Virus record (IMG/VR): IMGVR_UViG_3300049136_000131
Span: 5,323 to 69,322 of that record
DNA: 64,000 nt
Strand: one strand, 5' to 3'
From: a virus
Lineage: Duplodnaviria; Caudoviricetes
The translations under genes were made by a program, and so were the position numbers. How positions within the stretch are numbered: the first letter of the stretch is position 1; each line of letters starts with the position of its first letter. The notes under the pieces were generated by a model. The model was not told the DNA's origin. It saw nothing but the letters and a program-made list of their open reading frames with translations, and searched no databases. Shown here in pieces: positions 36,653 to 61,182 of the stretch.

Positions 36653-37683
36653 TGGGGCGGGCTGTCCCGGCTGCCGCGCCGGGCGGGGCAGCCAAGCCGC
36701 TGTCCATCGTCGCCCGCGTGCACGCCATGCCACCGGAGCACAACGCTGGCGCCGAGCACATGCTCGTGTCGATGCTCCGGCCGTTGGTGGGGCGCGGCCA
36801 CGACGTGCAGGTGTGGCTGTCCCGCTACGGCAAGGCCCACGAGGAGTACGAGTACCGGGGCATCCGAGTGGTGCCGCTGGAGTCGAGGCTGGACTTCCCG
36901 ACTGCGGTGCGTCGTGCGGATGTGCTGGTGGCGCATCTGGAGACGGTGCCGCAGACGGCTTCGCTGGCCCGCGGGTACGGCAAGCCGCTGATCGTGGTCT
37001 GCCACAACACGCACCGGCAGACGTTCCGGGATGCTGCGGCGGGCGGCACGTCGCTGGCGGTCTACAACTCGCAGTGGATGGAGCGGGAGGCGGAGTTGTT
37101 CTTCGCCGAGTTCCCGAAGGCCGTCCGGCCCGAGCAGTCGCTGATCGTGCGCCCGCCGGTGTTCGCCGACGAGTACGCGACGAAGCCGGGCAAGGCGATC
37201 ACGCTGATCAACTGCAACGCGGAGAAGGGCGGCAAGGTACTCGCCGAGCTCGCCCGCCGCATGCCGGACCAGCAGTTCATCGCGGTACGCGGCGCCTACG
37301 GGGAGCAGATCCTCCCCGACCTGCCCAACGTCGAGATCGTGGAGCACGTCCGCGGCGAGGACATGCGGGAGCAGGTGTACGCCCGCACCCGCGTGTTGCT
37401 GATGCCGTCGTTCTACGAGTCGTGGGGCCGGGCCGGCGTCGAGGCGCTCGCCTCCGGCATCCCCGTGGTCGCGCACCCGACGCCGGGGCTGTGCGAGTCG
37501 CTGGGTGAGGCGGGGATTTTCGTCGACCGCAACGACATCGACGGCTACGAGGCGGTGCTGCGGAAGCTCGCAGCGCCCGCGGAGTACCGGCTGGCGTCGA
37601 AGCGGGCGCGGGCCCGGTCTGCCGAGCTCGATCCGGCTGCCGACCTGGCGGCCTGGTGCAGTGCTGTGGAGTCTCTGGCCTGA
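36652..37683 (+). CDS. glycosyltransferase family 4 (GT-B)
   Basis: HNAGAE, YNSQW, KGG, LMPSFYESWGRAGVEALASGIPVVAH. Confidence 0.9.
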   Translation: MGRAVPAAAPGGAAKPLSIVARVHAMPPEHNAGAEHMLVSMLRPLVGRGHDVQVWLSRYGKAHEEYEYRGIRVVPLESRLDFPTAVRRADVLVAHLETVPQTASLARGYGKPLIVVCHNTHRQTFRDAAAGGTSLAVYNSQWMEREAELFFAEFPKAVRPEQSLIVRPPVFADEYATKPGKAITLINCNAEKGGKVLAELARRMPDQQFIAVRGAYGEQILPDLPNVEIVEHVRGEDMREQVYARTRVLLMPSFYESWGRAGVEALASGIPVVAHPTPGLCESLGEAGIFVDRNDIDGYEAVLRKLAAPAEYRLASKRARARSAELDPAADLAAWCSAVESLA

Positions 37684-40904: not shown

Positions 40905-43900
40905 GTGGCTGCGATCAGCGTTGGATCCGTTGAGGTTGATGTCGTCCCCAATACGCGGGGCATCCGCAGTCGCCTGCAGGCAGGTCTCGTGCCTGCCGCG
41001 AACCAGGTTGGCGACGAGGTCGGTCGGATCATCGGCCGGCACATCTCCACGCAGGTCGCGCAGGCCATCCGCACCGGCGTCACCCAGGGCGGCCGGACCG
41101 CTCAGGCCCCGGCCGCCCGGCAAGGGCAGGCCACCGGCAGCACGTTCGCACGGTCGCTGCGCACCACCCTTGAGACGGCGCTGCGAAACCTGCCCGAGGT
41201 GCGGCTGCGGGCAAACTCGACGGACGCTGAGCGGGAGATCTACCAGATCCGCAACCACCTCCGCGCCCTGCAGGATTCACGGATCGGCATCGACATCAGC
41301 TCCGCCGATGCTGTCGCCGCGATCAACCACCTCCAGCAGCGGTTGCAACGGCTGTCGTCGTCGGACGCCGATGTCGCCATCCGTGTCGACGCGGCGAGCG
41401 CCGCAACGACGCTGGCGGCGATCCAAGCGCAGGTCAACCGGCTGGATGGCCAGACGGCCCGCGTCGACGTGGATACGAGTACGGCTGCGGCGAATCTGCG
41501 GCTGCTGTCCACGGCGGCGATCGCGTTCGGTCCGGCGATCATTCCGGCTCTGCCGGTGGTGGCCGCCGGCCTGGGAGCGGTCGCTGCTGCCGCGACGGCG
41601 GCTGCCGTCGGTATCGGCGCGGTGGCGCTGGTCGCGGTACCCGCGTTTGTCCAGATGGGCAAGGTGCTGCAGGCGCAGAAGGCCGCCCAGGACGCGGCGA
41701 CGAACGCAACGATGCGGGGCGGGCAGGCTGCGTCGCAGGCGGCGCAGCGGTCCCTGCAGATGGCGGGCGCTCAGCAGGCTCTGGCGACCGCGCACCGGAA
41801 CGCGGGCCGTCAGATCGCTCAGGCCGAGCAGGGTGTATCCGACGCGGTGCGGTCGGCGTCGGAGGCGAACCGGCGGGCCAAGCAGCAGTTGGCTGATGCC
41901 GTGCAGCAGGCTGCGGACCGGCAGCGGCAGTCTGCCGAGCAGGTCCGCCGCGCCGAGGAGTCCCTGGCGGACGCGCAGCGTACCGCCCGGCAGGCCCAGG
42001 AAGACCTGACCCAGGCTCGCCGGGACGCCGCTCAGGAACTCGCCGACCTCGAAACCCGGCTCACGAACGCACAGCTCTCCGAGCGGGACGCCGTGCTGTC
42101 TGTGCAGGAGGCACAGGACCGGCTCCGCGCCGTGCAGGCCGAGGGCTCGACTGCGACGCTCATGGAGCAGCAGCGTGCCCAGCTCGCCTACGACCAGGCT
42201 GTGCAGCGTCTGAAGGAAGCGCGCGACGAAACCAAGGACCTCACCGCGGAGAAGAAGGCTGCGGACAAGGCTGGTGTTGAGGGTTCGGAGACGGTCCGCA
42301 CGGCGCAGGAGCGTCTCTGGCAGGCTGATGAGGCGGTTGTCCGGCAGCAGCAGGAGCTTACCCGTGCGCGGCAGGACGCTGCCCGCCAGCAGGTGGAGGC
42401 CCAGGAGGCTGTCGCTGAGGCGCAGCGGAACGTGGCCCGCACCCAGGAGGACGGCGCCCGGTCGGTGGCTCGCGCCCAGGAGCAGCTGGCCGCGGCCCAG
42501 CAGTCCGCTGCCGACTCGATTGCGTCCGCGCAGCGAGGAATTGCCTCCGCGTCGCTTCAGGCGGCCGGGGGCGTCGATCAGGCTGCCATTGCTCAGGCCA
42601 AGTACCAGGCTGAGCTGGCGAAGCTGACGCCGTCGGCGCGGGAGACGTACAACGCGTTCCTCGGCTTGCGGACCGCGTTCTCGGCGTGGTCGCGCTCGTT
42701 GCAGCCTGCGGTGATGCCCATCTTCACGCGGGCGTTGAATGGGCTGAAGAACAGTCTGCCGGGCCTGACCCCGTTCGTGCTGGCTGCTGCGGACGCGATC
42801 AAGGGGTTGCAGGATCGGGCGTCTGCCGGGTTCAAAAAGCCCTGGTGGAAGGAGTTCAAAGCCGACCTGGAGAGGTCCATCGGCCCGGCCATCACCGGGC
42901 TGGGCATCTCCTTCGGGAACGTGTTCAAGGGCATGGCCGGCGTTCTGCAGGCCTTCTTCCCCCACATGGATTCGATCTCCCGGCGGATGCAGGACATCAC
43001 CGGCCGGTTCGCCAACTGGGGCCAGAGCCTCAAGGGGTCGCCGGAGTTCGAGCGGTTCCTCAGCTACAGCTCCGAGAACGGCCCGCTCCTCGCTGACACC
43101 TTCGGGAAGCTCGGCCGGGCCCTGCTCGACATCGGCCAGGCGCTTCAGCCCGTATCCCGCCCGCTTCTGGAACTGATCGGCGCCCTCGCCTCCGGGCTGA
43201 GCTCCATCGCCACGTACCTGCCCGAGCTCGTCCTCGGTATGTGGGGGCTCCTCGTCGTCACACGGCTGTGGACGATCGCCATGTTCCTCGCCAACGGGGC
43301 GATGACCCTGTTCAACATCATCTCGAAGGCTGGCCCGTGGGGCTGGATCGTCCTGGCCATTACGGCCGTGGTTCTCGCCGTCGTCTACATGTACCGCCGG
43401 TTCGATTGGTTCCGGGCGGCCGTACAGACGGTGTGGAACGCGATCAAGGCCGGGGCCATGTGGCTGTGGACGGACGCCATCAAGCCTGCGTTCGATGCGA
43501 TCTGGGGCGGGCTGCAAACCGTTGGCCGCTGGGCTATGTGGTTGTGGCACAACGCCATCAAGCCCGCGTTCGACTGCATCTCGATGGCGGCGCGCATCCT
43601 GTTGACCGCGCTGGTCACGATCGCCCTCCTGCCGATCATTGCCGTCATCAAGATCGTCGGCGCGATCGCCAAGTGGCTGTGGACGGACGCCATCAAGCCC
43701 GCCTTCGATGCGATCGCCGCTATCGCCATGTGGCTGTGGACGAACGTCTTCAGCCCCGTCTTCACGTGGATCGCCGACAAGGCGAAGTGGCTGTGGAACA
43801 ACGCCATCAAACCGTCCTGGGCGGCGATCCAGGCGGGTACCCAATACCTGTGGGCGACCGTGCTGAAGCCGGTCTTCAAGGCAATTCAGGGCGGCTTGCA

Positions 43901-45413
43901 GACCGTCGGCCAGTGGGCTAAATGGCTGTGGAAGGAGGCCATCAAGCCCGCTTGGGGCGGCATCGTCTCGGCTGCCAACTACGCGTGGGAGAAGGGCTTG
44001 CGGCCCGCGTTCAACGCGATCAAGTCGGCGGTGCGCACCGTCGGCGACGCTTTCGAGTCTGCCCGCAAGGCGATCAAAACCGCCTGGGACAAGCTGAAGA
44101 GCATCGCCCGGACCCCTGTCCAGTACGTCGTCGACGTCGTCTACAACAACGGCATCCGCGGCGTCTGGAACAAGGTCGCGGGTGCCTTCGGAGCGCCGAA
44201 GCTACCGGCGTTCAAGTTCGCGGCCGGCGGCATCATGCCTGGCTACACGCCGGGGAAGGACGTCCACAAGTTCGTGTCGCCGACCGGTGGCCAGTTGGAG
44301 TTGTCGGGCGGCGAGAGCTTCTTCCGACCGGAGTTCACGCGGGCCGTCGGCTCTGGCTTCGTGGGCACCATGAACCGCATCGCGAAGACCCGCGGTTCCT
44401 CTGGTGTAGCGACGGCCCTTGCGCCGGTGCTGGGCGGCAACCCGGCCACGTCGACAGACACGTCGCTGCGCTACGCCCGCGGCGGCGTCTTCCCGACGCA
44501 GCGCTTCGCGGATGGCGGCATCTTCGGCTGGATCAAGAACGCAGCCTCGACCGCCGTGGGCGCAGGCTCCGCAGCCTGGAACAAGATCAAGGAGGGGGCG
44601 TCGTGGCTCACCGACACCCTCGAAGCGTCTGCACGCGCGGGCGTGCGCAACGTCGTTGATCCGCTGCTGAAGAACTTCCCCGGTATGGACACCGGCATCG
44701 GCAAGATGATCCGGCGCATCCCGACGCGGATCATCGACAGCATGTTCGGCTACAGCAAGGAAGCCGACAAGCGCGGCGCAGGCGGCATCGGCGGACCCCG
44801 CATCCAGGCCGCGCTGACCTGGGCGAAAACCCAGAACGGCAAGCCCTACCAGTGGGGCGGCAACGGCAACCCCAGCTGGGACTGCTCCGGCTTCATGTCC
44901 GCGATCGAGTCCGTGATCCGCGGGCAGAAGCCGCACCGCAGGTGGAGCACACACGCCTTCAACGGCGGCACCCCGCCTGGCTGGGTCAAGAACGGCAACA
45001 GCGCATTCCGCGTTGGCATCACGCACGCCGGCGTCGGCCACACCGCAGGCACCCTCGGCAAGACGAAGGTTGAGTCGAGGGGCGGGGACGGTGTCGTGGT
45101 GGGCCGACGGGCGCGCGGCTACAACGACCGCCTGTTCACGTCGTGGTACGGGTTCCAGCCCGGCAAATACGACTCGGGAGGTTACCTTCAGCCCGGCCTC
45201 AACCTCGCCTACAACGGCACTGGCCGACCCGAGCCCGTGTTCACCACGTCGCAGGCGAACGCGCTCACCTCGCTCGCAGCGCGGTCCTCGCAGCAACAAC
45301 TCGGGGACCTGGCCGTCACCGTCTACGTCGGCAACGAGCAGATCACCGACATTGCGCGCGCCGAGGTGCGCACCGCTCAGGGCGAGCTCATTCAGGTACT
45401 CAACGCGGGCTGA
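40905..45413 (+). CDS. tape measure protein with C-terminal NlpC/P60-like domain
   Basis: 1502 aa; Trp-periodic helical repeats, FAAGG motifs, YQWGGNGNPSWDCSG..GHT. Confidence 0.93.
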   Translation: MAAISVGSVEVDVVPNTRGIRSRLQAGLVPAANQVGDEVGRIIGRHISTQVAQAIRTGVTQGGRTAQAPAARQGQATGSTFARSLRTTLETALRNLPEVRLRANSTDAEREIYQIRNHLRALQDSRIGIDISSADAVAAINHLQQRLQRLSSSDADVAIRVDAASAATTLAAIQAQVNRLDGQTARVDVDTSTAAANLRLLSTAAIAFGPAIIPALPVVAAGLGAVAAAATAAAVGIGAVALVAVPAFVQMGKVLQAQKAAQDAATNATMRGGQAASQAAQRSLQMAGAQQALATAHRNAGRQIAQAEQGVSDAVRSASEANRRAKQQLADAVQQAADRQRQSAEQVRRAEESLADAQRTARQAQEDLTQARRDAAQELADLETRLTNAQLSERDAVLSVQEAQDRLRAVQAEGSTATLMEQQRAQLAYDQAVQRLKEARDETKDLTAEKKAADKAGVEGSETVRTAQERLWQADEAVVRQQQELTRARQDAARQQVEAQEAVAEAQRNVARTQEDGARSVARAQEQLAAAQQSAADSIASAQRGIASASLQAAGGVDQAAIAQAKYQAELAKLTPSARETYNAFLGLRTAFSAWSRSLQPAVMPIFTRALNGLKNSLPGLTPFVLAAADAIKGLQDRASAGFKKPWWKEFKADLERSIGPAITGLGISFGNVFKGMAGVLQAFFPHMDSISRRMQDITGRFANWGQSLKGSPEFERFLSYSSENGPLLADTFGKLGRALLDIGQALQPVSRPLLELIGALASGLSSIATYLPELVLGMWGLLVVTRLWTIAMFLANGAMTLFNIISKAGPWGWIVLAITAVVLAVVYMYRRFDWFRAAVQTVWNAIKAGAMWLWTDAIKPAFDAIWGGLQTVGRWAMWLWHNAIKPAFDCISMAARILLTALVTIALLPIIAVIKIVGAIAKWLWTDAIKPAFDAIAAIAMWLWTNVFSPVFTWIADKAKWLWNNAIKPSWAAIQAGTQYLWATVLKPVFKAIQGGLQTVGQWAKWLWKEAIKPAWGGIVSAANYAWEKGLRPAFNAIKSAVRTVGDAFESARKAIKTAWDKLKSIARTPVQYVVDVVYNNGIRGVWNKVAGAFGAPKLPAFKFAAGGIMPGYTPGKDVHKFVSPTGGQLELSGGESFFRPEFTRAVGSGFVGTMNRIAKTRGSSGVATALAPVLGGNPATSTDTSLRYARGGVFPTQRFADGGIFGWIKNAASTAVGAGSAAWNKIKEGASWLTDTLEASARAGVRNVVDPLLKNFPGMDTGIGKMIRRIPTRIIDSMFGYSKEADKRGAGGIGGPRIQAALTWAKTQNGKPYQWGGNGNPSWDCSGFMSAIESVIRGQKPHRRWSTHAFNGGTPPGWVKNGNSAFRVGITHAGVGHTAGTLGKTKVESRGGDGVVVGRRARGYNDRLFTSWYGFQPGKYDSGGYLQPGLNLAYNGTGRPEPVFTTSQANALTSLAARSSQQQLGDLAVTVYVGNEQITDIARAEVRTAQGELIQVLNAG

Positions 45414-49350: not shown

Positions 49351-49971
49351 GTGCCCACTCAGGACAGCTACGGGCAGGGCATCAATATCGCCGCGCTGAC
49401 CGACGCTCCTGACGCGTCCAAGCTGGCCCGCGACATCGTCAACGCGATCGCCCAGCGCAGTGTCATGCGGTTCGCTTCCGCCTCAGCCCGCAGCGCCACC
49501 CTCGTCGGCGACTACGCCCCGGTCGACGGCATGGTGACGCTGCTGCAGGACGTGAAGCGACTGGACGCCCGACTCGACGGCACCTGGGTCGCCCTGTCGG
49601 TGGGTGCCTCCACGTGGAAGACCATCAGCCCGGCATCCGGCTGGTCGCAGAATGGGAACAGCCAGGGCACCTTCCAGTACCGGCTGCTCAACATCAGCGG
49701 CGAGGAGTCCATCCAGTTCCGGGGTGGCCTGGCCCGGTCCTCCTACCCGACGAGCCCGCCCTCCAGCTACGTCGTCAACAACACGGCGCTGCCAAGCTCC
49801 GTTCGGCCGTCGACGCTGCGGACCGTGCTCATCCCCAGTTCCGACGTCAGCAGCGACCGGATCGCCCTGAAGTTGGACGTCAAGACCGACGGCTACCTCG
49901 AAGTCTTCGGGTTCGGCAGCACGACGAAGCCGCCGTGGATCGGCTTCAACGGCGTCACCGTCAGCCTCTAA
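49351..49971 (+). CDS. tail fibre/tip protein
   Basis: DSYGQG..LTDAPDA..VMRFASASARSA; WIGFNGV end. Confidence 0.7.
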   Translation: MPTQDSYGQGINIAALTDAPDASKLARDIVNAIAQRSVMRFASASARSATLVGDYAPVDGMVTLLQDVKRLDARLDGTWVALSVGASTWKTISPASGWSQNGNSQGTFQYRLLNISGEESIQFRGGLARSSYPTSPPSSYVVNNTALPSSVRPSTLRTVLIPSSDVSSDRIALKLDVKTDGYLEVFGFGSTTKPPWIGFNGVTVSL

Positions 49972-49985
49972 ACCATCCTGCCCAC

Positions 49986-50005
49986 GCCCCTGAACGGGGC
50001 TTTTT
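49986..50005 (+). terminator. intrinsic terminator between tail and lysis genes
   Basis: GCCCC-TGAAC-GGGGC-TTTTT. Confidence 0.6.
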
Positions 50006-50027
50006 CTATGCCCAGAAAGGGGGCCCC

Positions 50028-51014
50028 GTGGCCAGGACAGGCCCACAGAAGATCCCCGGCGCCAGCCAAACCTACTTCTACGGAACCGGCCGCTACTCCG
50101 GCTCCGACATGGAAGTGAACTGCGGCGTCGTCCACACCACCGAGGGCCGAAGCCTCCCCAGCTACAGCGGCGGAGCCATGGCCCCGACTGTGACAGGCGT
50201 GCCCGACATCAAGGCCAAGAAGATCCGCTGGTACCAGCACTTCGACGTCGACGAGTCCGCCCGCGCCCTCGCCAACAAGCTCGGCGGCGTGGCGACCAAT
50301 ACCGCGAACGCCTTCCAGATCGAACTCGTCGGCACCTGCGACGCCAAGAGGTCGACCGTGTGGGACGGCAAGCGGGCCGGCGTCGACTACATCTACTGGC
50401 CGGGCGCTCCAGAGTGGGCGCTCGCTGAGGTGGCGTGGCTGGTGCGCTGGCTGCACGACTACCACCGCATCCCTCTGACCTGCGTGCGCGACTGGCTCGC
50501 TTACGGCAAGGACCCGCGCCGGCCCGGCATCACGCCAGCTTCCTACGGGGCGAGTCCTGCCCGCATGTCTCATTCTGCCTGGCGCGCCTTCACCGGCTGG
50601 TGCGGGCACCAGCACGTACCGGAAAACGACCACGGCGACCCGGGCTCCATGAACTTCGCCCGCGTCATTCAGCTCGCCAAGGGCGAGCCCAGCACCGAGG
50701 AGGACCCCATGGCCGGCATCACCAAGCAGGACATCCACAACGCTGTGTGGAGCATCGACGGCATCAGGGCCGGTTCGACGGAGAAGAACCCGAAGAACGA
50801 GACGTGGCAGCCGCAGACGTACCTGAAGGGCACGTTCGAGAACACGGTGAAGATCCTGGCGGCGGAGGTGGGGCAGTCGGCAGCGATCGCCAAGCTGGCC
50901 CAGCTCGTCGGCTCCGACGTTGACACCGAACAGGTCGTCGCCGCCGTGGAGAAGGCCATCGCCGACGCCGTTGTCAAGGTCAGTGTCGACGTCACCGGCA
51001 CCGACGCCTCGTGA
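50028..51014 (+). CDS. endolysin, N-acetylmuramoyl-L-alanine amidase
   Basis: VVHTTEG, QIELVG, GHQHVPENDHGDPG zinc-amidase motifs. Confidence 0.88.
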   Translation: MARTGPQKIPGASQTYFYGTGRYSGSDMEVNCGVVHTTEGRSLPSYSGGAMAPTVTGVPDIKAKKIRWYQHFDVDESARALANKLGGVATNTANAFQIELVGTCDAKRSTVWDGKRAGVDYIYWPGAPEWALAEVAWLVRWLHDYHRIPLTCVRDWLAYGKDPRRPGITPASYGASPARMSHSAWRAFTGWCGHQHVPENDHGDPGSMNFARVIQLAKGEPSTEEDPMAGITKQDIHNAVWSIDGIRAGSTEKNPKNETWQPQTYLKGTFENTVKILAAEVGQSAAIAKLAQLVGSDVDTEQVVAAVEKAIADAVVKVSVDVTGTDAS

Positions 51015-51565
51015 GCGCCATCGACTACGACCTGGAGTTCCTGGAGGACGGGCGCCACATCGACCTGATCTCCATCGGCATGGTGTGCGACGACGGCCGC
51101 CAGTACTACGCCGTCAACCGCGACATGCCGGTACGGAAGATCCGCAAGCACAAGTGGCTGATGGAGAACGTCGTCCCCGGCCTGCCCAAGGGCAGCGGAG
51201 ACCGGCACAACCACGTGCCGAAGTCTTGGCTGTTCGACTACGCCGACCCGGTCGTGAAGCGGCGTGAGCGGATCGCCGACGACGTCATGGACTTCATCCG
51301 CGCCGCAGGACCGGACGTGCAGCTGTGGGCGAACTACGGCGCCTACGACCACGTCTGCCTCGCCCAGCTCTGGGGCCGCATGACCGACCTCCCCGAGGGC
51401 GTCCCCATGTTCACGCACGACATCCAGCAGGAACGCGCCCGGCTCGGCATCTCGTGGGACGCCCTACCGAAGCAACTCTCCAGCGAGCACAACGCGCTCG
51501 CGGACGCCCGCCACAACCAGACCGTCCGGCGCTGGCTCGCCGAACAGGAAGCGAGAGCATCATGA
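51011..51565 (+). CDS. DEDDh 3'-5' exoribonuclease (Rv2179c/RNase AS-like)
   Basis: DYDLEFLEDG..LISIGMV, AYDHVCL, HNALADARH. Confidence 0.85.
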   Translation: MSAIDYDLEFLEDGRHIDLISIGMVCDDGRQYYAVNRDMPVRKIRKHKWLMENVVPGLPKGSGDRHNHVPKSWLFDYADPVVKRRERIADDVMDFIRAAGPDVQLWANYGAYDHVCLAQLWGRMTDLPEGVPMFTHDIQQERARLGISWDALPKQLSSEHNALADARHNQTVRRWLAEQEARAS

Positions 51566-52706: not shown

Positions 52707-52880
52707 ATGCCCGAACCGATCCCGCTGCGACCGCGCCGCGACGACACCGCTGCGGACATGCGGTCCCTCGTCCAACTTGGCGAGGTGGAACCGCAGCCCA
52801 TCCCGGAGCCGGCCACGAACCCGTTCCAGGAGCCGGTGTACAACCCGCCCCTCGAACCACCCGCCGACGAACCTGCGTGA
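52707..52880 (+). CDS. small Pro-rich protein
   Basis: GGAG RBS; MPEPIPLRPRRDDTAADMRSLVQLG.. Confidence 0.45.
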   Translation: MPEPIPLRPRRDDTAADMRSLVQLGEVEPQPIPEPATNPFQEPVYNPPLEPPADEPA

Positions 52881-52881
52881 C

Positions 52882-52913
52882 AACGCCCCGCCGCCTTCGG
52901 GCGGTGGGGCGTT
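52882..52913 (+). terminator. terminator ending the late operon
   Basis: AACGCCCCGCCGCC-TTCG-GGCGGTGGGGCGTT. Confidence 0.75.
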
Positions 52914-52997
52914 CTGGCCTATCTGGGGCACGAGTTGGCGAAGCCACTGGACGCGTTACCGGTTGATGCGGGTATGGTGGTCACACAACTTCATGCA

Positions 52998-53067
52998 CCT
53001 CCCGGTGCGCAGGCCGCGGCTACTTCTTTGGGTGAACTCGCCGCACGCCGACTCTGATCTCGGGAGG
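52998..53067 (+). ncRNA. short Y-RNA-like ncRNA (about 70 nt)
   Basis: Terminal stem CCTCCCG/CGGGAGG; CCCGGTGCGCAGG, CGGCTACTTC and TGATCTCGGG motifs shared with the next RNA; upstream of Ro60. Confidence 0.7.
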
Positions 53068-53078
53068 CACAGCATCGG

Positions 53079-53219
53079 GGGTGCCCGGTGCGCAGGCGAC
53101 GGCTACTTCCACTGTTAATGGGGTGGTTGCGGGTTCGAGTCCCGCCGGAGGCTTAGCGGCCTCCGTAGCTCAATCGGCAGAGCACCTACGTACCGTCACC
53201 GTCTTGATCTCGGGCACCC
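53079..53219 (+). ncRNA. yrlA: YrlA-like Y RNA with circularly permuted tRNA-like domain (about 141 nt)
   Basis: Terminal stem GGGTGCCCG/CGGGCACCC; anticodon-like arm, T arm GCGGG-TTCGAGT-CCCGC, looped acceptor stem CGGAGGC/GCCTCCG, then D arm GCTC-AATCGGCA-GAGC. Confidence 0.85.
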
Positions 53220-53232
53220 CACTGCTGAGCTT

Positions 53233-53254
53233 CCCCTCCACGTGAGGGGTTTTT
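53233..53254 (+). terminator. terminator-like hairpin overlapping the Ro60 RBS
   Basis: CCCCTC-CACGT-GAGGGG-TTTTT ending 2 nt before ATG 53257. Confidence 0.55.
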
Positions 53255-53256
53255 CT

Positions 53257-54918
53257 ATGTCCCGCTTCAACACGCGCGGCACCCGTCCCGCCGTCCACTC
53301 GCCCGTGAAGTCGACCGGGGAGACGACCCGCACCCACGAAGGCGGCACCGGACACCTCCGCGACGCGAAGAGTGAACTCTTCCTTCTCGCCCTCAGCAAC
53401 ATGGTCGGCGCCGACACCTTCTACGAGAAGGGCGGCGACCGCGACGACCGCTACACCCAACTCGTGCGCCAGCTCGCCGTCTTCGACCCGGCCTGGACAG
53501 TCGGCTTCCTCGGCTGGCTCCGCGGCGAGGGCAACATGCGCACCGCATCCCTCGTCGGCGCAGCCGAGTTCGTCAAGGCCCGCCTCGATGCAGGCCGCGG
53601 GACCGGCGGGCTCACCGGCACCTCGGCCCTGGAGACCGAGCAGAACGGCGGCTACAACCGGCAGGCCATCCGCGCCGTCCTCCAGCGCGCCGATGAGCCG
53701 GGGGAGATGCTCGGCTACTGGACCAGCAAGTACGGCCGCCGCCTGCCCAAGCCGGTGAAGCGCGGCATCGCCGACGCCGTACAGCGCCTGTACAACGAGC
53801 GGTCGCTCCTCAAGTACGACACCGACTCCAAGGGCTACCGCTTCGGCGACGTCCTGGAACTGGTGCACGCCTCGCCGCGGGCGCCGTGGCAGGGCGACCT
53901 GTTCCGGTATGCCATCGACCGCCGTCACCGCAACGACGCCGCGATCCCAGCCCACATGCGAATCCTCACCTCGGACGTAGTCCTGCGACACCAGGCAAGG
54001 CAGAGCGCCGAAGCCCTACTCGACAGCGAAGCGCTTCACGGCGCAGGGATGACGTGGGAGACGACCCTGTCGCTGGCAGGCGACAGGGTCGACAAGGCGA
54101 AGCTGTGGGAGGCGCTCATCCCGTCCATGGGCCTGATGGCCCTCGCGAGGAACCTGCGGAACTTCGACGAGGCGGGCGTCTCCGACGAGGTGGCCGCCCG
54201 TATCTGCGCCCGCTTCACCGACCCGGAGCAGGTGCGGAAGTCGCGCATGTTCCCGTTCCGCTGGTGGGCCGCCTACAAGCACGCCCCCTCCCTGCGGTGG
54301 GCCCACGCCCTCGAGCAGGCCCTCGGCCACTCCCTTGCCAACGTGCCGCGGCTGAAGGGCCGCACGCTGATCCTGGTCGACCGGTCCCCGTCCATGTTCC
54401 CGGGCTACTACTTCTCCACCCCGAACAGCTCCGACATCACGCTCGCCGAACAGGCAGCCGTGTTCGGCTCCGCCCTTGCCCTACGCGCCGAGAGCCCGAC
54501 CCTCGTCGAGTTCGGATGGACCAGCCAGCGACTCGACGTACCCAAGGGCGGCTCGGTGCTGAAGCTCATCGAGAAGTACGGGCAGATCGACGGCACCGAC
54601 ATCCCGTCCGCCGTCAAGCAGCACTACGACCGGCACGACCGCGTCGTCATCGTCACCGACGAACAGACCCGTCCCGGCTGGCTCCCCTCCAACGGCTGGC
54701 AGCGCGGCGGCATGCGGGAGACCGCCATCGACGACCTCGTGCCGAAGACGACGCCCGTCTACATGTGGAACATGGCCGGCTACAAGCCCGGCGCCATGCC
54801 CAGCGGGACGACCGGCCGCCACACGTTCGGCGGGCTCACCGATCACGCCTTCCGGCTCGTGCCGCTCCTCGAAGCGGGACGTGACGCCAACTGGCCGTGG
54901 ATGCAGCCAGCCGCCTGA
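53257..54918 (+). CDS. rsr: Ro60/TROVE-domain RNA-binding protein with C-terminal vWA domain
   Basis: THEGGTG, GNMRTASLV, PKPVKRGIADA, MTWE, MALARNLRNF, SRMFPFR, LILVDRSPSM, VIVTDEQ. Confidence 0.92.
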   Translation: MSRFNTRGTRPAVHSPVKSTGETTRTHEGGTGHLRDAKSELFLLALSNMVGADTFYEKGGDRDDRYTQLVRQLAVFDPAWTVGFLGWLRGEGNMRTASLVGAAEFVKARLDAGRGTGGLTGTSALETEQNGGYNRQAIRAVLQRADEPGEMLGYWTSKYGRRLPKPVKRGIADAVQRLYNERSLLKYDTDSKGYRFGDVLELVHASPRAPWQGDLFRYAIDRRHRNDAAIPAHMRILTSDVVLRHQARQSAEALLDSEALHGAGMTWETTLSLAGDRVDKAKLWEALIPSMGLMALARNLRNFDEAGVSDEVAARICARFTDPEQVRKSRMFPFRWWAAYKHAPSLRWAHALEQALGHSLANVPRLKGRTLILVDRSPSMFPGYYFSTPNSSDITLAEQAAVFGSALALRAESPTLVEFGWTSQRLDVPKGGSVLKLIEKYGQIDGTDIPSAVKQHYDRHDRVVIVTDEQTRPGWLPSNGWQRGGMRETAIDDLVPKTTPVYMWNMAGYKPGAMPSGTTGRHTFGGLTDHAFRLVPLLEAGRDANWPWMQPAA

Positions 54919-54930
54919 CCCGAGCGCCAC

Positions 54931-54962
54931 AGCGCCCCGCCCTCATCCAAGGGCGGGGCGCT
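54931..54962. terminator. bidirectional terminator
   Basis: AGCGCCCCGCCCT-CATCCA-AGGGCGGGGCGCT between convergent genes. Confidence 0.75.
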
Positions 54963-54971
54963 TCGTCTTGC

Positions 54972-55592
54972 TCAGAACTCCAGCTGCTTCTTCAGCTCGG
55001 CCACGTTCGGGCCGGAGTCCACAGAGGGCATCTCCCAGCGGTGCGCCTTCTCTTCGCCGTCGACGTAGATCAGCGTCCCGCCCTTCGCTTGCGCGGGCGT
55101 CAGGTCGAACACCTGTGACCGCCACTGCCAGGCACCAGGCTGGATAGGTTCGGCGTTCTCATACTTTCCCGCGCTGATTGTCGTTGAGTTGCCGCTGTCC
55201 CAGCCGATCATCTCTCCGTCTGGGGCCATCCACTTCCACCCGCCGCCAGTGATTGGCGGTACTTCGTCTGCGGCGACCGCCGTCATGGCCTTGGCTTTCA
55301 TGACGATCACGGCGAAGACACCGTTCTCCGCGGTCTCCCCGGTCGCCGCCTTCGTGTAGACCACTGTGTCCGGGGTGATTTCCAGGACGCCTGTGCCGCC
55401 GTCTCCGGTGGTCTGCGCCGGCTGTCCGAGCTTCAGTCCCTTCTCGGGCTGCCCAGCCGTGGGCTCCTCGCTGGACGTAGCCGTGGACGGCGGCTTGTTC
55501 GTCGCCGCATCGTCGCCGCTGTCGCTACCGCCGCATGCGGTGAGCGCGGCCAGAAGTAAGGCAGCCGTCGCTGCCGTCGCGCGTGCGCGCAT
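54972..55592 (-). CDS. lipoprotein (DUF4352-like; possible superinfection exclusion)
   Basis: Signal peptide with lipobox LTAC, Ser/Thr linker, Ig-like domain. Confidence 0.75.
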   Translation of the reverse strand: MRARATAATAALLLAALTACGGSDSGDDAATNKPPSTATSSEEPTAGQPEKGLKLGQPAQTTGDGGTGVLEITPDTVVYTKAATGETAENGVFAVIVMKAKAMTAVAADEVPPITGGGWKWMAPDGEMIGWDSGNSTTISAGKYENAEPIQPGAWQWRSQVFDLTPAQAKGGTLIYVDGEEKAHRWEMPSVDSGPNVAELKKQLEF

Positions 55593-55733
55593 CGAACCCC
55601 CAAGGTTGAACGTCGGAACACCGTAGAACACGGGTGGACGGTCAGTGAGGGAGCGTCACCAGGCTGTGACACGAAGTCCCGCCGTCTCGCCACAACGGCG
55701 GAGGAGCGGGGCGGAATGCTATGCCCGGAAGCG

Positions 55734-56456
55734 TTACTCGGAGGCGCGCTGCTGGGCTCTACGGAGCAACCGAAGCAGTAGATCGGCCAACTGGACCACC
55801 TCGGCTGCCTCGACCGGATCGTCGAAGTGCACCGTCCGGTGGCTAGCGGGATTCTTGAAGGCGCCGATGGCTCCCGCGAACAGCTCCATGAGCGCGACGA
55901 CTTCACCTCCGTGCGCTCCCTTGTCGGCGAGAGGCCCACCCGGCTTCAAAGCTTGCCGCATGAGGTCCACGCCGATAACCGATGAGTCCAGGCCGGCGGC
56001 GGCTCGAACCTCGACCTCGACCGCCTTCATGGCGGCGAAGCAGGCCGTCTCGTAGTCGCCCAGATTGAAGATGGGGCGCACCTTCTCCTCAAGCGTCGGA
56101 TCGAGCACTCCTGCGAGGCGGTCTGCGGCCCAGAGCTTCGCTTGACCCTTTGAATCCGTCGCTATCTCAAGGCCGTCGGTGGTCACGCGTTGCCAGGAGG
56201 AGGTCGTGTTCTTGGGATGCGGCCCGATAAGCCCCCGCGACTCCAGCCACGCCCAGGCGTCCGCCAGGCGGGCGAGGAGGCGGTCTTTGTCCCGCTCGCC
56301 GCTGTGGTCGAAGGCTTGTTCTGCGCTGCGGAGCATGTTGTTGGCGTTCACCGTGCGCCCTTCCCCGAATGATCGGAGCAGAGCCATGGCGAGCTCAGGC
56401 GTCGGAAGCTGACGGATCTGTTCGACCGGCACCGGACCGGAGTAGCTCATCGTCAT
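55734..56456 (-). CDS. TIGR02391/Ymh-like family protein
   Basis: AWAWLESRGLI N-domain; YETACFAAMKAVEVEVR, GVDLMRQAL, LFAGAIGAFKNPASH. Confidence 0.8.
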   Translation of the reverse strand: MTMSYSGPVPVEQIRQLPTPELAMALLRSFGEGRTVNANNMLRSAEQAFDHSGERDKDRLLARLADAWAWLESRGLIGPHPKNTTSSWQRVTTDGLEIATDSKGQAKLWAADRLAGVLDPTLEEKVRPIFNLGDYETACFAAMKAVEVEVRAAAGLDSSVIGVDLMRQALKPGGPLADKGAHGGEVVALMELFAGAIGAFKNPASHRTVHFDDPVEAAEVVQLADLLLRLLRRAQQRASE

Positions 56457-56558: not shown

Positions 56559-57092
56559 ATGTCAAAGTCCTCTCTTGCCGGGGATCGAGCCTTCGTCCGA
56601 GAGCTCGATGGTGCCCGGCTTCGACTCCAGACCGCACGCCGAGAACGCCGCCGCGCCGACGAGGCGGTGGCCGCAGAGACTCGACGCATCCAATACCTGG
56701 AAGCGCGGTCGCTCGCGGACCCGGGACACGACTTCGGCGACCTCACTATCCTCCTCCGCGAGATCGATCCCGCAGAGCTGGAGAGGTTCAGTCCAACGTG
56801 CATCTACTGCCGGGCACCCATGTCCTCAGAGGCGGCGATCGATCCTTGCCGAGGCGATTCGCATCGCTGTTACGCGGCCGTAGAGGAAGGAGCAACGCCT
56901 ACGGCATTTCAGCAGTACGGCCGCGACGGCTGGCTGTGCGGACAGTCGGGCTCATTCGACCCCACAGGCACGTCCTGGGAATGCGCCTCGGGACACCGCA
57001 CCGACCGCCCGTGCGAGCGACGCCCAGGCTGGGGCGATAGTGACTGCCTGAATGAATGCCCGTGCCGCGACCTCGGGAGGAAGACGCGGTGA
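56559..57092 (+). CDS. Cys-rich hypothetical protein
   Basis: Coiled-coil N-terminus, many Cys; GTGA overlap with the recombinase. Confidence 0.55.
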   Translation: MSKSSLAGDRAFVRELDGARLRLQTARRERRRADEAVAAETRRIQYLEARSLADPGHDFGDLTILLREIDPAELERFSPTCIYCRAPMSSEAAIDPCRGDSHRCYAAVEEGATPTAFQQYGRDGWLCGQSGSFDPTGTSWECASGHRTDRPCERRPGWGDSDCLNECPCRDLGRKTR

Positions 57093-58225
57093 CGCTCCCA
57101 GCCCAGCAGGCTGGGCAGTCGATCGCGCTGCCCGGCTCGGACCTATTCGAGGAAGTCCGCCGCAAGCTCATCGACGACCTCGGTCAAGTCCAAGTCGACC
57201 GGCGCGGACAAGAGCGCACCTACCGGCCCCGCGCCGAACTCCTCGCCGAAGCCGTCACCCCCGACACGTTCGTCATGGTCATGGACTGGCTGTCGTCCAC
57301 CCGGCGCGGCAGCCTCCAGACGAAGCGCAACTACGTCGACGACATCCGCCGCGTCTGGGGCAGCTACGCGCAGGAGTTGGGGCACGAGCAGTTCGCCCTC
57401 GGCTGCTTCACCGCCGACCACATCCGCGCATGGCGCCTCCGGATGGAAGGCCGCGGCGTCCCGCCCACCACGATCAGCCGCTACCTCAACGCGCTCTCCT
57501 CGCTCCACACCTACGCCGCCGAGAAGATCAATCTCCCCAAGAACCCCGTCACCCAAGACGACCGCCCCAAAGTCGACAAAGGCAACACCTCCCGAAGCAC
57601 CCCCGTCCTCGAAGTCGACGAAGTCCAAGCCGTAGTGAAAGCAGCGGAGGCCGAGTTCGACGCGCTCATCGTCCTACTCCTCTACACTCTCGCCGGCCGA
57701 GTCACCGAGATGGTCGCCGCAGACGTCACCGACCGCATCGAACGCGGACGCCGCTCCTACCTCGACGTCACCCGCAAGGAACACAAGGAGCGCATCCTCC
57801 CGCTCCCCGTCACCGTCGCCGAACTCCTCGACGCCCACACCGCGGGCCGCACCGAAGGTCCGCTCCTCCTCGACGCCGACGGAGGCCGGCTCGACCGGCA
57901 CGACGTCGCACGGCTCCTCACCCGTCTTGGCCGCAAGGCGCGCGTCCTCACCTGCCCGGCCGCTGGCAAGCCCGGCCATTCCTTCGCTCGCTGCAAGGTC
58001 TGCCGCAAGCTCACCCCCCACGTCCTGCGCGCGTCCCGGATCACTCACATGCTCGACGACCACGTCGACCTCGCCGAAGTCCAAGCCTTCGCCGACCACG
58101 ACAACCCCGCCACGACCGTCGGCTACTGGAAACGCCGCAACAAGGGCCAGCGCAACGCCGCCCACGTCGACGCAGCCGAAGCCCTCTTCGGAGAGATCAC
58201 CGACCGCTTCCGTCGCGACGCCTGA
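57089..58225 (+). CDS. tyrosine recombinase (XerC/D-like)
   Basis: SAM-like N-domain; catalytic R (AGRVTE), K (TRKEHK), HxxR (PHVLR), H/Y (ADHDNPATTVGY). Confidence 0.9.
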   Translation: MTLPAQQAGQSIALPGSDLFEEVRRKLIDDLGQVQVDRRGQERTYRPRAELLAEAVTPDTFVMVMDWLSSTRRGSLQTKRNYVDDIRRVWGSYAQELGHEQFALGCFTADHIRAWRLRMEGRGVPPTTISRYLNALSSLHTYAAEKINLPKNPVTQDDRPKVDKGNTSRSTPVLEVDEVQAVVKAAEAEFDALIVLLLYTLAGRVTEMVAADVTDRIERGRRSYLDVTRKEHKERILPLPVTVAELLDAHTAGRTEGPLLLDADGGRLDRHDVARLLTRLGRKARVLTCPAAGKPGHSFARCKVCRKLTPHVLRASRITHMLDDHVDLAEVQAFADHDNPATTVGYWKRRNKGQRNAAHVDAAEALFGEITDRFRRDA

Positions 58226-58242
58226 CCAGGCAGGAGATGCAG

Positions 58243-58884
58243 ATGACAGTTCACGAGGACATGGCCGAGGCCCTCTGGGAAGACATCCAGGAAAGCCCGG
58301 AAGCGGTCGCCGCCATGTTCAGGCTGCGCAACCGGCACATCCGTGGCGAGATGGATGAAGGCGGCATGTATGGGACGGGTTACGCCGACGCGCTCGGCAG
58401 CTCCGCAAGGTTCCCGCCCAAGAAGTGGCCCTTGGCTCAACACGCCGCCTTCATCAACATCCACGCCCTCATCGGAGCAGGCGACGTCGCCTTCACCTGC
58501 ATCAGTACAGGCGGCACGCCGGGCGCGGACGCCGACCGGGTCGGGAACGCCCGAAAGCTGGAGGACACAGCGGACCCGTTCCAGGCGGAACTCGACATGT
58601 ACCAGAACGGAGCCGACTCCGACGGTGTCATCCGGTGGGGCAGGCCGCTGAAGATCAGCCGCTCCACTGGAGCTCACTTCTACCCTTCAGCTTGCAGAAA
58701 GCAGGAGTACTCGCTCCTTACATACCCGACTGTGCTCGAGGTTGGCTCGGCACCCCTTGAGGTGGGCGACTCCTGGCCCTCACGCACGCTGATGCATCTC
58801 CACCAGTACGGCGCCGTTGCACGGTGGCCCTACGGATCGAAACTCATCTGGCTCTTCATCAACTTTGCGAAGTTCTCGTGGTGA
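58243..58884 (+). CDS. hypothetical protein
   Basis: AGGAG RBS after the recombinase stop. Confidence 0.6.
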   Translation: MTVHEDMAEALWEDIQESPEAVAAMFRLRNRHIRGEMDEGGMYGTGYADALGSSARFPPKKWPLAQHAAFINIHALIGAGDVAFTCISTGGTPGADADRVGNARKLEDTADPFQAELDMYQNGADSDGVIRWGRPLKISRSTGAHFYPSACRKQEYSLLTYPTVLEVGSAPLEVGDSWPSRTLMHLHQYGAVARWPYGSKLIWLFINFAKFSW

Positions 58885-58939
58885 GGGCTCGCGAAGTCGC
58901 CGACAAGTGGACCGGCGCCGCATCGGAGGACATCGGCCT

Positions 58940-59269
58940 ATGACCTTGGAGATCCGAGAGACCGACGACCCAGATCACCTCAAGCTGTACGACGGTGAGG
59001 ACTGGATCGGCGAGATCAAGAACATCCCCCTTGATGAGGAAGGTGTCGCGCTCGGCGAGCTGCCCAACTGGGACGTCACAGTCTGGAGCGTGATGGGTAC
59101 GGGCAAGACGTGGTCGGCAGACGGCGAATCGCTCGACGAGGCCAAGCAGTACGCACAGGAACTGTACGAGGAGTTCGCGGCCGAGCGGCGCGAGCTGAGC
59201 AAGGGCTCCCGCATCTGGACGACGGGCAGCGTCCCGATGGGCGGAAAGCCCGGGTGGCGCCGCCGCTAG
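58940..59269 (+). CDS. acidic hypothetical protein
   Basis: GGAGG RBS. Confidence 0.6.
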   Translation: MTLEIRETDDPDHLKLYDGEDWIGEIKNIPLDEEGVALGELPNWDVTVWSVMGTGKTWSADGESLDEAKQYAQELYEEFAAERRELSKGSRIWTTGSVPMGGKPGWRRR

Positions 59270-59795: not shown

Positions 59796-59981
59796 TCACG
59801 CCTTCGCTTCGGGCAGCTGCCCGGGCCTGACGGGCACTATCTCGACGCTGCTGCACCCGTTGCCTTCGAGCGTCTCCTTCTGCCTCCCGGCGGACGGCTT
59901 GTCGTAGGCGACGGCAGAGGCTTGCGGTATGCCAGCCGGGTCGGTCCAGGTGAGCCCGTAATTCTGCATAGTGATCGTCAT
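59796..59981 (-). CDS. small hypothetical protein
   Basis: MQNYGLTWTDPAG..SAVAYDKPSA..VEIVPVRPGQLPE. Confidence 0.55.
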   Translation of the reverse strand: MTITMQNYGLTWTDPAGIPQASAVAYDKPSAGRQKETLEGNGCSSVEIVPVRPGQLPEAKA

Positions 59982-60264
59982 GCGTCCATCATGGCTGGCG
60001 GCACTGACATCGCCCGGCGAACTACTTTCGGCCGGGATCTTCCCCGGTGGCTGGTTAGTGGCGCATGCTGTGCGTCCGGGCGCTTCCCCTTCCCCAGGTG
60101 GAGCCCCTGTTGGGCCCTGCTGTTTGCTGCGAGTAGCGGGGCACGCCGCTCCTCCCGGTCCTCCCCACGGGAGGGCTTGCGGCTGCCCGAAACTCATCAG
60201 CGTGTGCGGCGGCAGATGTCTGGCCGTAGCCTGGCCTTGCTCGGGGCTCACGCGGAGGTCTGCC

Positions 60265-61182
60265 ATGCCCCGAACCGTCTGGAGCGGAGCCATCTCGTTC
60301 GGCCTAGTCACGGTGCCCGTGAACGTGGTCAGCGCGACGGAGAACCACTCGATCCAGTTCCACCAGTACCACCTGGAGGACATGGGCCGGGTCCGGGTGC
60401 GGAAGTACTGCGAGGTCGAGGACCGCGAGGTCCGCTCCGACGAGATCGGCAAGGGTTACCAGCTCACCAAAGAGCAGGTCATCCCCATCACGGACGAGGA
60501 GCTCAGCAACTTGCCGCTGCCCACCGCTCGGGCGATCGAGATTGAGGCCTTCGTCCCGCTGGAGTCCGTGGACCCGATCCGCATCGCGGAGGGCTACTAC
60601 TTGCAGCCGAAGGAGTCGGTGGCAGCGAAGCCGTACAAGCTCCTCGTCCAGGCACTGTCCCGGTCGTCGAAGGTGGCCGTCGCGAAGTACGCGTGGTCGG
60701 GCCGGGAGCGCCTTGGCCTGCTGCGCGTCCGCGACGATGTGATCGTGCTGCACGCCATGCGCTGGCCCGACGAAATCCGCGACCCCGCCGTCGTCGACCC
60801 GCCCACGGTCGACGTCACTGACGACGAGATCGACAGCGCGCTGGCCCTCATGGACAGCATGACCCGTGACGACCTCGAAGGCGCCGAGTTCCGCGACACC
60901 TACACCGAGGCCCTCGCCCAGATCATCGAGGCGAAGTGCGAGGACCACGAGCTGCCGGCGGCGCCCGAGCAGGCCGAGCAGCCGGGGCCGATCGTCGATC
61001 TCATGGCCGCGCTGCAGGAGTCCGTGCAGAAGGCGCAGGCCTCCCGCGGCGAAGACGCTGACGTCCACGAGATGCCGAAGAAGAAGGCCGCCACCAAGAA
61101 GGCCGCGGCCGCGAAGAAGCAGCCGGCCAAGAAGACCGCCGCCAAGAAGACGGCGGCCCGGAAGCCACGCCGCGCGTCTTAG
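60265..61182 (+). CDS. ku: Ku protein (NHEJ end-binding)
   Basis: MPRTVWSGAISFGLVTVPV, EIGKGYQ, YYLQP, VAVAKY, HAMRWPDEIR, DLMAALQES; Lys/Ala tail. Confidence 0.95.
   Translation: MPRTVWSGAISFGLVTVPVNVVSATENHSIQFHQYHLEDMGRVRVRKYCEVEDREVRSDEIGKGYQLTKEQVIPITDEELSNLPLPTARAIEIEAFVPLESVDPIRIAEGYYLQPKESVAAKPYKLLVQALSRSSKVAVAKYAWSGRERLGLLRVRDDVIVLHAMRWPDEIRDPAVVDPPTVDVTDDEIDSALALMDSMTRDDLEGAEFRDTYTEALAQIIEAKCEDHELPAAPEQAEQPGPIVDLMAALQESVQKAQASRGEDADVHEMPKKKAATKKAAAAKKQPAKKTAAKKTAARKPRRAS

Follow-up and report, generated by a model that had tools for sequence, protein, structure and literature searches.

Between the lysis region and the integrase gene of a temperate Streptomyces-type siphophage lies a cassette of two small structured RNAs followed by a gene for Ro60 (Rsr), within the 64-kb stretch of DNA analysed here (hereafter the window). 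The window is part of the IMG/VR provirus record IMGVR_UViG_3300049136_000131 (69,322 bases, 68–70% G+C). With a probability of about 0.85, we read this cassette as a Ro60–Y RNA ribonucleoprotein module of the type known from bacteria and phages, carried by the prophage as an accessory unit. The identities of the genes, the structures of the RNAs, their conservation, their linkage to rsr and the patchy distribution of the cassette directly support this reading. All elements are on the plus strand up to and including rsr, in the order GC hairpin, promoter-like element, RNA1, 5-nt spacer, RNA2, small hairpin with UUUUU, rsr and GC hairpin:

52882–52913 (+): upstream GC-rich hairpin, terminator-like, 14-bp stem, −31.5 kcal/mol, z −4.1, without a U-tract
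52948–52978 (+): promoter-like element, TGGACG (−35-like), 19-nt spacer, TATGGT (−10-like)
52984–52995 (+): leader CACAACUUCAUG, which separates the −10-like box from RNA1 (conservation of at least 90% in the upstream alignment)
52996–53072 (+): RNA1, YrlB-like short Y RNA, closing stem 52998–53067, about 70 nt
53078–53222 (+): RNA2, YrlA-type Y RNA of about 141–145 nt, Ro-binding stem plus circularly permuted tRNA-like domain
53107–53123 (+): anticodon-arm-like hairpin of RNA2, UUCCA-CUGUUAA-UGGGG, followed by the 5-nt linker UGGUU
53129–53145 (+): T-arm mimic of RNA2, GCGGG-UUCGAGU-CCCGC
53146–53165 (+): acceptor-stem mimic of RNA2, CGGAGGC/GCCUCCG, 7 bp, loop UUAGCG
53168–53183 (+): D-arm mimic of RNA2, GCUC-AAUCGGCA-GAGC, preceded by UA
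53233–53254 (+): hairpin CCCCUC-CACGU-GAGGGG plus UUUUU (stem-loop 53233–53249, −11.6 kcal/mol), whose 3' arm is the Shine-Dalgarno (SD) sequence of rsr
53257–54918 (+): rsr, 553 amino acids, Ro60 orthologue combining a TROVE HEAT-repeat ring with a von Willebrand factor A (vWA) domain that bears a MIDAS (metal ion-dependent adhesion site)
about 54931–54962 (no strand assigned): downstream GC-rich hairpin, −31.2 kcal/mol, z −5.5, between the convergent rsr (+) and 54972–55631 (−)

The product of rsr was recognised from its domains, its sequence profile and its predicted fold. The TROVE domain was matched by Pfam PF05731 (58.8 bits against a cut-off of 23; 7.5e-16), and phrog_850, the phage 'RNA-binding protein' family of PHROGs, spanned the full length of the protein (2e-45). 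The MIDAS motif of the vWA domain (DxSxS...T...D; D375, S377, S379, T447 and D468) was invariant in 28 homologues. A profile built from these homologues matched Ro60 of Thermus phage phiLo most strongly (1.6e-44), followed by Ro60 of human and Xenopus (about 1e-12) and Rsr of Deinococcus radiodurans (6e-9). When the AlphaFold2 (AF2) model of the protein (pLDDT 82.7, pTM 0.80) was searched with Foldseek, the Ro60 structures of phiLo, Xenopus, human and D. radiodurans were found (E 1e-17 to 1e-12; TM 0.61–0.75); nothing else of similar size superposed on the model, and its C-terminal part matched vWA/integrin I-domain folds. The best homologues in cultured phages, from the Streptomyces phages Kela and JustBecause, were 48% identical. 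Judged on profile and modelled fold, the protein is a member of the Ro60/Rsr superfamily, outside the narrow NCBIfam equivalog; the TROVE+vWA gene named in the original prediction was confirmed by the Pfam match and the invariant MIDAS, and its identity as Ro60 by the profile and the predicted fold.

RNA2 folds with z −4.25, and its end is 35 nt upstream of the rsr ATG; a same-strand placement near rsr was found in about 87 loci. At the Rfam gathering threshold nothing was found in the window. The original prediction had named a search with YrlA models as a check, and a permissive Rfam search of 451 nt did align RNA2 end to end with YrlA (RF02553; E 8.8e-9), at 44.5 bits. Among 99 distinct full-length sequences, 97.1% of the cells at paired positions were paired and 25 of the 38 pairs showed compensatory changes; with partners slid out of register, only 38–51% were paired, and none of 500 shuffles attained the observed values. 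All eight helices were backed by covariation, the outer stem among them.

The order of parts inside the Ro stem was UAC, a 5-bp hairpin, a linker, the T arm, the acceptor-like stem, UA, the D arm and an 8-nt junction. The YUAY word ahead of the variable region reads CUAC in the window, and UAC was present in 96 of the 99 homologues. The hairpin had a 5-bp stem and a 7-nt loop in 89 of 99, with the loop consensus C-U-NNN-A-A and covariation in three of its five pairs; the linker, UGGUU in the window, was 4–5 nt long across homologues and usually NGGUC. Within this frame the loop triplet varied (GUU in 26 homologues, GCU in 19, GUC in 9, CUU in 6, others in the remainder), and in all 14 loci with two YrlA copies the two loops differed. 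The T-arm loop was UUCGAGU or UUCGAAU in 86 of 99 and its helix (helix 6) was 100% paired. Compensatory changes were found in six of the seven acceptor-stem pairs, the D-arm helix (helix 8) was 99.5% paired, and the UA junction before it was kept in 85 of 99. When the permutation was undone in silico (acceptor 5' strand, D arm, hairpin, linker, T arm, acceptor 3' strand), ARAGORN called a full-length tRNA in 93 of the 99, and tRNA-Asn(GUU) for RNA2 of the window. This comparative evidence identifies RNA2 as a Y RNA of the YrlA type, in which a tRNA is mimicked in circularly permuted form. Either the hairpin or the Ro stem might stack under the D stem, both being compatible with the sequence, and the hairpin may hence be an anticodon arm or a variable arm.

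The native sequence of RNA2 also drew a tRNA call from ARAGORN, tRNA-Asn(GUU) at 53080–53154, and GenBank phage records list comparable elements as tRNAs. That a genuine tRNA-Asn gene lies here is scarcely credible, and the structure already refutes it: the ARAGORN model takes the 5' strand of the Ro stem as acceptor and D arm, Rfam tRNA stayed under threshold throughout the window, covariation favours a permuted arrangement in which the anticodon-like arm is followed by the T arm, the closed acceptor stem and the D arm, and the acceptor end is closed by a loop, leaving no free 3' end. We thus rejected this candidate. The GenBank tRNAs that overlapped matches of our RNA2 covariance model (R1, described below) near Ro-like genes were a tRNA-Asn of Microbacterium phage SM23 (82 bits), a tRNA-Pro of Streptomyces phage Frankenweenie (47 bits) and a tRNA-Arg of Streptomyces phage GiJojo (51 bits). 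Such labels, from tRNA finders and in several GenBank phage records, inflate phage tRNA counts and hide Y RNAs. The Y RNAs mis-called as tRNAs in the window and in our locus set (loci numbered L) were:

window, 53080–53154
L113, 2974–3040
L114, 1880–1970
L115, 2268–2342

RNA1 consists of the Ro-binding stem and a small apical hairpin, UUC-UUUGGGU-GAA, with a pyrimidine-rich loop. In 64 distinct homologues 97.4% of the cells were paired (36–56% in slid controls), and compensatory changes were seen in 6 of 18 pairs, all in the inner stem; the outer stem, CCUCCCGG/CUCGGGAGG, was identical in 64 of 64. The words CCCGGTGCGCAGG, CGGCTACTTC and TGATCTCGGG are common to RNA1 and RNA2, and the payloads differ, a small apical loop in the one and a tRNA-like domain in the other. 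Classed by its structure, there being no sequence family for comparison, RNA1 is a YrlB/Yrn2-type hairpin sharing its Ro-binding stem with RNA2. A small open reading frame (ORF) from the ATG at 52993 through the RNAs was also considered and rejected, because indels among homologues are not multiples of three.

The original prediction had described two stem-closed RNAs of about 70 and 141 nt that share three words and carry different payloads. Its observation was correct as written, all elements lying where it had placed them and the three words occurring in both RNAs, and the covariation it had proposed to look for in rsr upstream regions was strong for the long RNA and moderate for the short one. 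Its view of them as Y RNAs agrees with the sub-threshold YrlA match and with conservation and covariation over about 100 loci. Its two terminators stood in part: both hairpins are there, but neither has a canonical U-tract, and a consensus terminator scan of the window called the SD hairpin only and neither of the flanking ones; we describe them as terminator-like GC hairpins. The upstream hairpin (52882–52913) would probably end the transcript of the lysis region. The SD hairpin, between RNA2 and the ATG, had been missed; its arms were nearly invariant in 37 of 42 loci, with the U-tract in near relatives only.

The RNAs travel with rsr. Relatives of Rsr were collected from 111 loci (79 genomes, mainly of Streptomyces and Kitasatospora, plus 32 contigs of viral or proviral origin); by BLAST, about 90 of these had the two RNAs upstream of rsr. 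The covariance model R1, built from 71 RNA2 homologues, matched only two sites in the window, RNA2 at 147 bits and RNA1 at 50.6 bits through the shared stem. Across 99 related loci and the window R1 gave 187 matches, all on the rsr strand and nearly all at most 500 nt upstream of the start codon. The two sites in 64 kb, together with the rsr-adjacent matches in relatives, place the pair far beyond chance; conservation, pairing with covariation, and linkage indicate that both RNAs are real, selected structures tied to rsr. No protein family was so tied: after flanking ORFs of 112 loci were clustered, none accompanied rsr in more than 13. The gene was found in at least two kinds of context: in prophages it has lysis genes upstream of it and an integrase gene downstream, and on chromosomes its neighbours are, for example, TerD or epimerase genes. 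When 151 genomes of the same class were sampled evenly, R1 gave full-length matches in about 13, so the YrlA-type RNA is widespread.

Within phages the cassette comes and goes. Homologues of the exoribonuclease encoded upstream of it (60–91% identity) were found in at least 80 IMG/VR contigs, yet among 65 viral contigs that share this gene, with at least 4 kb downstream of it, only 10 carried rsr; the closest relatives (84–91% identity) had neither rsr nor the Y-RNA words. The prophage of locus L128 matched the window at 52819–52896, 55491–55631 and 57110–58943 (76–88% identity). It had 0.6 kb where, in the window, 2.6 kb are taken up by the two Y RNAs, rsr and the greater part of the gene that follows. 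Upstream of the cassette this homology stopped at 52896, within the first GC hairpin. The word moron in the original prediction is apt for an accessory cassette of patchy occurrence that has a promoter-like element to itself, present in 10 of 65 contigs and absent from the syntenic L128; the comparisons support a self-contained accessory unit that would fit that reading. The further proposal of the original prediction, expression in the lysogen for RNA surveillance or anti-defence, is a conjecture.

Several observations weigh against this interpretation or limit it. A sigma-70 consensus scan of the window called no promoter, and the 19-nt spacer is atypical. The Rsr equivalog of NCBIfam, NF041674, scored 21.4 bits against a cut-off of 900, far under it, and Rsr here thus belongs to a distant branch of the family. 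The YrlA score of RNA2 (44.5 bits) is below the gathering score of 69, so Rfam at threshold misses it; 19 of 19 related loci searched at that threshold, three of them from cultured phages, likewise returned true tRNAs only and no YrlA. The published 5' motif GNCGAAN0-1G occurs only as the variant GUGCG(C/A)AGG, as GUGCGCAGG in the window and GUGCGAAGG in about 20% of homologues, keeping the CG(A/C)AG core with one extra base. The public sequencing runs listed as containing the stretch were one DNA run, possibly its source sample, and no RNA run. Finally, we infer the transcription start, the processing, the binding, the effector and the benefit to phage or lysogen; polynucleotide phosphorylase (PNPase) as effector would be an analogy from Deinococcus, Salmonella and phiLo. 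Set beside the scan for promoters is the conservation of the element itself: a TAnnnT box at a fixed distance of about 20 nt upstream of RNA1 was kept in about 35 of 37 loci, and the remaining upstream DNA was 33% identical or unalignable. The element at 52948–52978 may be a promoter.

We propose that the module would work as follows. A single transcript, starting at the promoter-like element about 20 nt upstream of RNA1, would carry the short Y RNA, the YrlA-type Y RNA and the rsr mRNA, and both RNAs would be excised from it, as are YrlA and YrlB in Mycobacterium smegmatis; by the same analogy, RNase P might cleave the 7-bp acceptor-like stem of RNA2. The Ro60 ring would bind each RNA through the shared bulged stem (5' CCCGGUGCG(C/A)AGG...GGCUACUUC, 3' ...UGAUCUCGGG). 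Through the tRNA-shaped head of YrlA, Ro60 could then be tethered to some host factor recognising the shape of tRNA, or else to PNPase or another 3'-5' exoribonuclease, and the tethering would redirect or damp RNA decay. The short RNA would form a second, head-less particle acting as a gate or competitor. The role of Ro60–Y RNA particles in bacteria is only in part understood to date.

Two other explanations must be weighed against this one. The structures may mainly control rsr expression in cis, instead of serving as stable trans-acting Y RNAs; this is an addition of our own, may coexist with the ribonucleoprotein module, and seems to us possible but doubtful. Four segments, complementary to one another and almost without variation, would form the switch: CCUCCC in the RNA1 5' arm (1), GGGAGG in the RNA1 3' arm (2), C(C/U)UCCCCUCC after RNA2 (3) and GAGGGG, the SD (4). 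With 1:2 and 3:4 paired the SD would be hidden (off), and in near relatives the hairpin with its U-tract could terminate transcription; with 2:3 paired the SD would be free (on). Binding of Ro60 to RNA1 would favour the off state and so autoregulation. The minimum free energy (MFE) fold of the whole leader in the window does pair 2:3, bracketing RNA2; across 55 distinct leaders the median energy difference between the two conformers was 3.5 kcal/mol (extremes −5.1 and +9.8), and the MFE fold without constraints was off in 31 and on in 20. A switch would explain the RNA1 outer stem, invariant in 64 of 64, where the RNA2 outer stem covaries. By locus, the RNA1 motif and the SD hairpin were both present in 55, both absent in 24, and present singly in 28 (RNA1 only, many with relaxed hairpins) and 1 (hairpin only). 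In L074, L076, L078 and L081, moreover, the short RNA is last and its 3' arm GGGAGG is 9–10 nt before the rsr ATG (just before position 3001) and equals the SD, so the Y-RNA closing stem itself contains the ribosome-binding site. This support is thermodynamic and comparative, however, and any GGGAGG pairs with any CCUCCC; the co-occurrence counts are confounded by shared ancestry and are not phylogenetically independent, the four segments never vary and so show no covariation, the RNA array of L033 is downstream of rsr, and the M. smegmatis RNAs are stable and bound by Rsr (PMC4201824).

The words resembling SD or anti-SD sequence are at 52998–53003, 53062–53067, 53229–53238 and 53244–53249, a quartet of the RNA1 5' end, GGGAGG, CUUCCCCUCC and GAGGGG. 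The CACCUCC stretch at the RNA1 5' end, invariant in all 64 homologues, is presumably identical to the anti-SD end of 16S rRNA.

The tRNA-shaped heads might alternatively serve as decoys or sensors. Their targets would be host enzymes acting on tRNA anticodon loops by cleavage or modification (tRNA-targeting anti-phage nucleases, for example); Ro60 would present or protect the heads, and the cassette would act as a counter-defence or superinfection-related module. The C-U-NNN-A-A signature, shared by 89 of 99 homologues despite a variable triplet, would suit such a role, as would the differing loops in 14 of 14 two-copy loci and the phage tRNA arrays in which Y-like RNAs are interleaved with true tRNAs; damaged tRNAs are reported to induce the Salmonella rsr operon (PMC7790460). 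We nevertheless consider it improbable. PADLOC was negative for Rsr and its neighbours, triplet drift could equally mean a lack of constraint, chromosomal, non-phage loci have the same RNAs, and the hairpin can also be read as a class-II-like variable arm (PMC4201824). A fuller version is likewise a long shot. In it the Ro60 ring would carry interchangeable tRNA look-alikes as decoys or sensors, each of them complete from anticodon arm and variable loop to T arm, acceptor stem and D arm, with triplets that change from copy to copy; the invariant SD/anti-SD quartet would tune Ro60 synthesis to the free short Y RNA. We retain the Ro60–Y RNA ribonucleoprotein module as the preferred reading.

Other Y-like RNAs were observed in the locus set. 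Four to seven of them are interleaved with true tRNA genes in the viral contigs L026 (1493–2956), L033 (5168–6100) and L115 (1–4900); in L033 the array is downstream of rsr. In Streptomyces sp. NBC_01506, a second full-length YrlA-type match (G001 C1 376069–376214, minus strand; 113 bits) is about 7 Mb from the rsr locus that was fetched. A third Y-like class of about 108 nt (R1 38–65 bits), with the same Ro stem and a different head, replaces YrlA directly upstream of rsr in the following loci:

L018, L043, L062, L067, L072, L095 and L098, about 2846–2967
L074, L076 and L078, 2885–2997

The remainder of the window holds a complete siphophage gene set, including:

30997–32727: large terminase
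portal and scaffold genes, part of the same set
35699–36649: major head protein
40905–45410 (+): tape measure, with tail protein genes also present
49614–51011: endolysin
51011–51562 (+): RNase AS/Rv2179c-like 3'-5' exoribonuclease, directly after the endolysin gene (Pfam PF16473)
holin-like gene, in the same set
57056–58222: tyrosine integrase

The tape-measure protein also matches endolysin family phrog_971 (1.6e-119), and a glycosyltransferase-like gene (36652–37680, plus strand; phrog_26352, 2e-168) lies directly 3' of the major head gene. The exoribonuclease scored 145.8 bits with NCBIfam NF033638, under the cut-off of 200. As a partner of Rsr it was considered and rejected: it is at most 3 kb upstream in 8 of 111 rsr loci, rsr is nearby in 10 of 65 contigs, and phage synteny accounts for the proximity. 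Between rsr and the integrase gene are two reverse-strand accessory genes. The first (54972–55631) encodes a protein of 219 amino acids with no family assigned and adjoins rsr in 7 of 111 loci, at varying positions; the second (55734–56456) encodes a TIGR02391/Hypoth_Ymh protein. A PADLOC scan of Rsr and five neighbours, these two included, found no match to a defence system. Downstream of the integrase gene is a Ku-like gene (59971–61179, plus strand), and in five other loci, L010 (5374–6276) among them, a Ku homologue likewise lies 2–3 kb downstream of rsr.

The cassette adds an example to a system for which bacterial and phage cases had been published and is not a new type, as the original prediction had said of the family itself (PMC4201824, PMC12135203). 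Chen et al. (2014, RNA 20:1715, PMC4201824) reported 254 bacteria and 22 phages with YrlA-like RNAs beside Ro60. In M. smegmatis, YrlA and YrlB lie upstream of rsr, a single precursor is processed into both, Rsr binds them, and RNase P cleaves the 7-bp acceptor stem of YrlA (PMC4201824). As there, two same-strand Y RNAs lie here just upstream of rsr, one of them a simple long hairpin, matching the described class of long hairpins whose loop is small and pyrimidine-rich, which comprises YrlB and Yrn2 (PMC4201824); the other shares with M. smegmatis YrlA (RF02553) the permuted T arm, closed 7-bp acceptor-like stem, D arm, YUAY and an extra hairpin before the T arm. The order differs, YrlA coming first in M. 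smegmatis and the sequence here being short RNA, YrlA, rsr. So do the Ro word, GUGCG(C/A)AGG against GNCGAAN0-1G in the set of Chen et al., and the Rfam score, 44.5 against a gathering value of 69. The extra hairpin was described in that set as a less conserved 'V' stem-loop upstream of the T arm that begins after the conserved YUAY, and was modelled as a variable arm (PMC4201824), whereas 89 of 99 in our actinobacterial set have the full anticodon-arm signature. R1, although a model of the Streptomyces set, also found YrlA of mycobacteriophage ET08 (72 bits), 150 nt upstream of a Ro gene and with the 7-nt hairpin loop AUUGAAA; in a tblastn search of cultured phages with Rsr of the window, no Mycobacterium phage was found at E ≤ 1e-5.

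Ro60 of Thermus phage phiLo binds two upstream Y-like RNAs (Yrl1 and Yrl2) and the host PNPase, which is attenuated (Nucleic Acids Research 2025, PMC12135203; PDB 9KOP, 9L5Y). It resembles the present case in being a phage Ro60 with two Y-like RNAs upstream and is the best match in sequence and fold (1.6e-44 with the profile; TM 0.62–0.75), but the proteins are about 23–25% identical, and the phiLo RNAs are described as stem-bulge-stem structures with a CGAA motif (PMC12135203). The Salmonella Typhimurium operon rsr-yrlBA-rtcBA likewise combines Ro60 with two Y RNAs, a tRNA-mimic YrlA whose T- and D-arm core is the same as here and a further small one (Chen 2013; Wang et al. 2018, 10.1101/312249; Hughes et al. 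2020, PMC7790460). Unlike that operon, the 69-kb provirus has no RtcB ligase, PF01139 being unmatched across the record as the original prediction had held for the neighbourhood, and no sigma-54/RtcR control is evident. In Salmonella YrlA the position of the anticodon stem is occupied by the Ro-binding stem, and an anticodon loop is reported to be lacking (Wang et al. 2018, 10.1101/312249); RNA2 has a separate anticodon-like hairpin. Cultured actinophages (Streptomyces phages Kela, JustBecause, BRock and GiJojo; Gordonia phages VanLee and Trax) also have homologous Ro genes, 44–48% identical, and adjoining YrlA-like RNAs. Their genomes are 112–200 kb (Streptomyces) and 76–85 kb (Gordonia), and at least in GiJojo the Ro gene is inside a tRNA array, whereas here the cassette stands alone in a temperate prophage.

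In contrast to the chromosomal M. smegmatis system and the large lytic phages, the carrier here is a temperate prophage, and the Ro60–Y RNA module takes a compact, self-contained form in a genetically tractable host genus. Because relatives cleanly with and without it exist, the cassette could serve as a system for deletion or complementation. Set against published accounts, two differences appear from the sequences: the anticodon-loop signature is very regular in the actinobacterial set, and Salmonella YrlA was reported to have no anticodon loop. Published work has proposed a tRNA dimer as the origin of YrlA, and the conserved anticodon-like arm is consistent with that idea.

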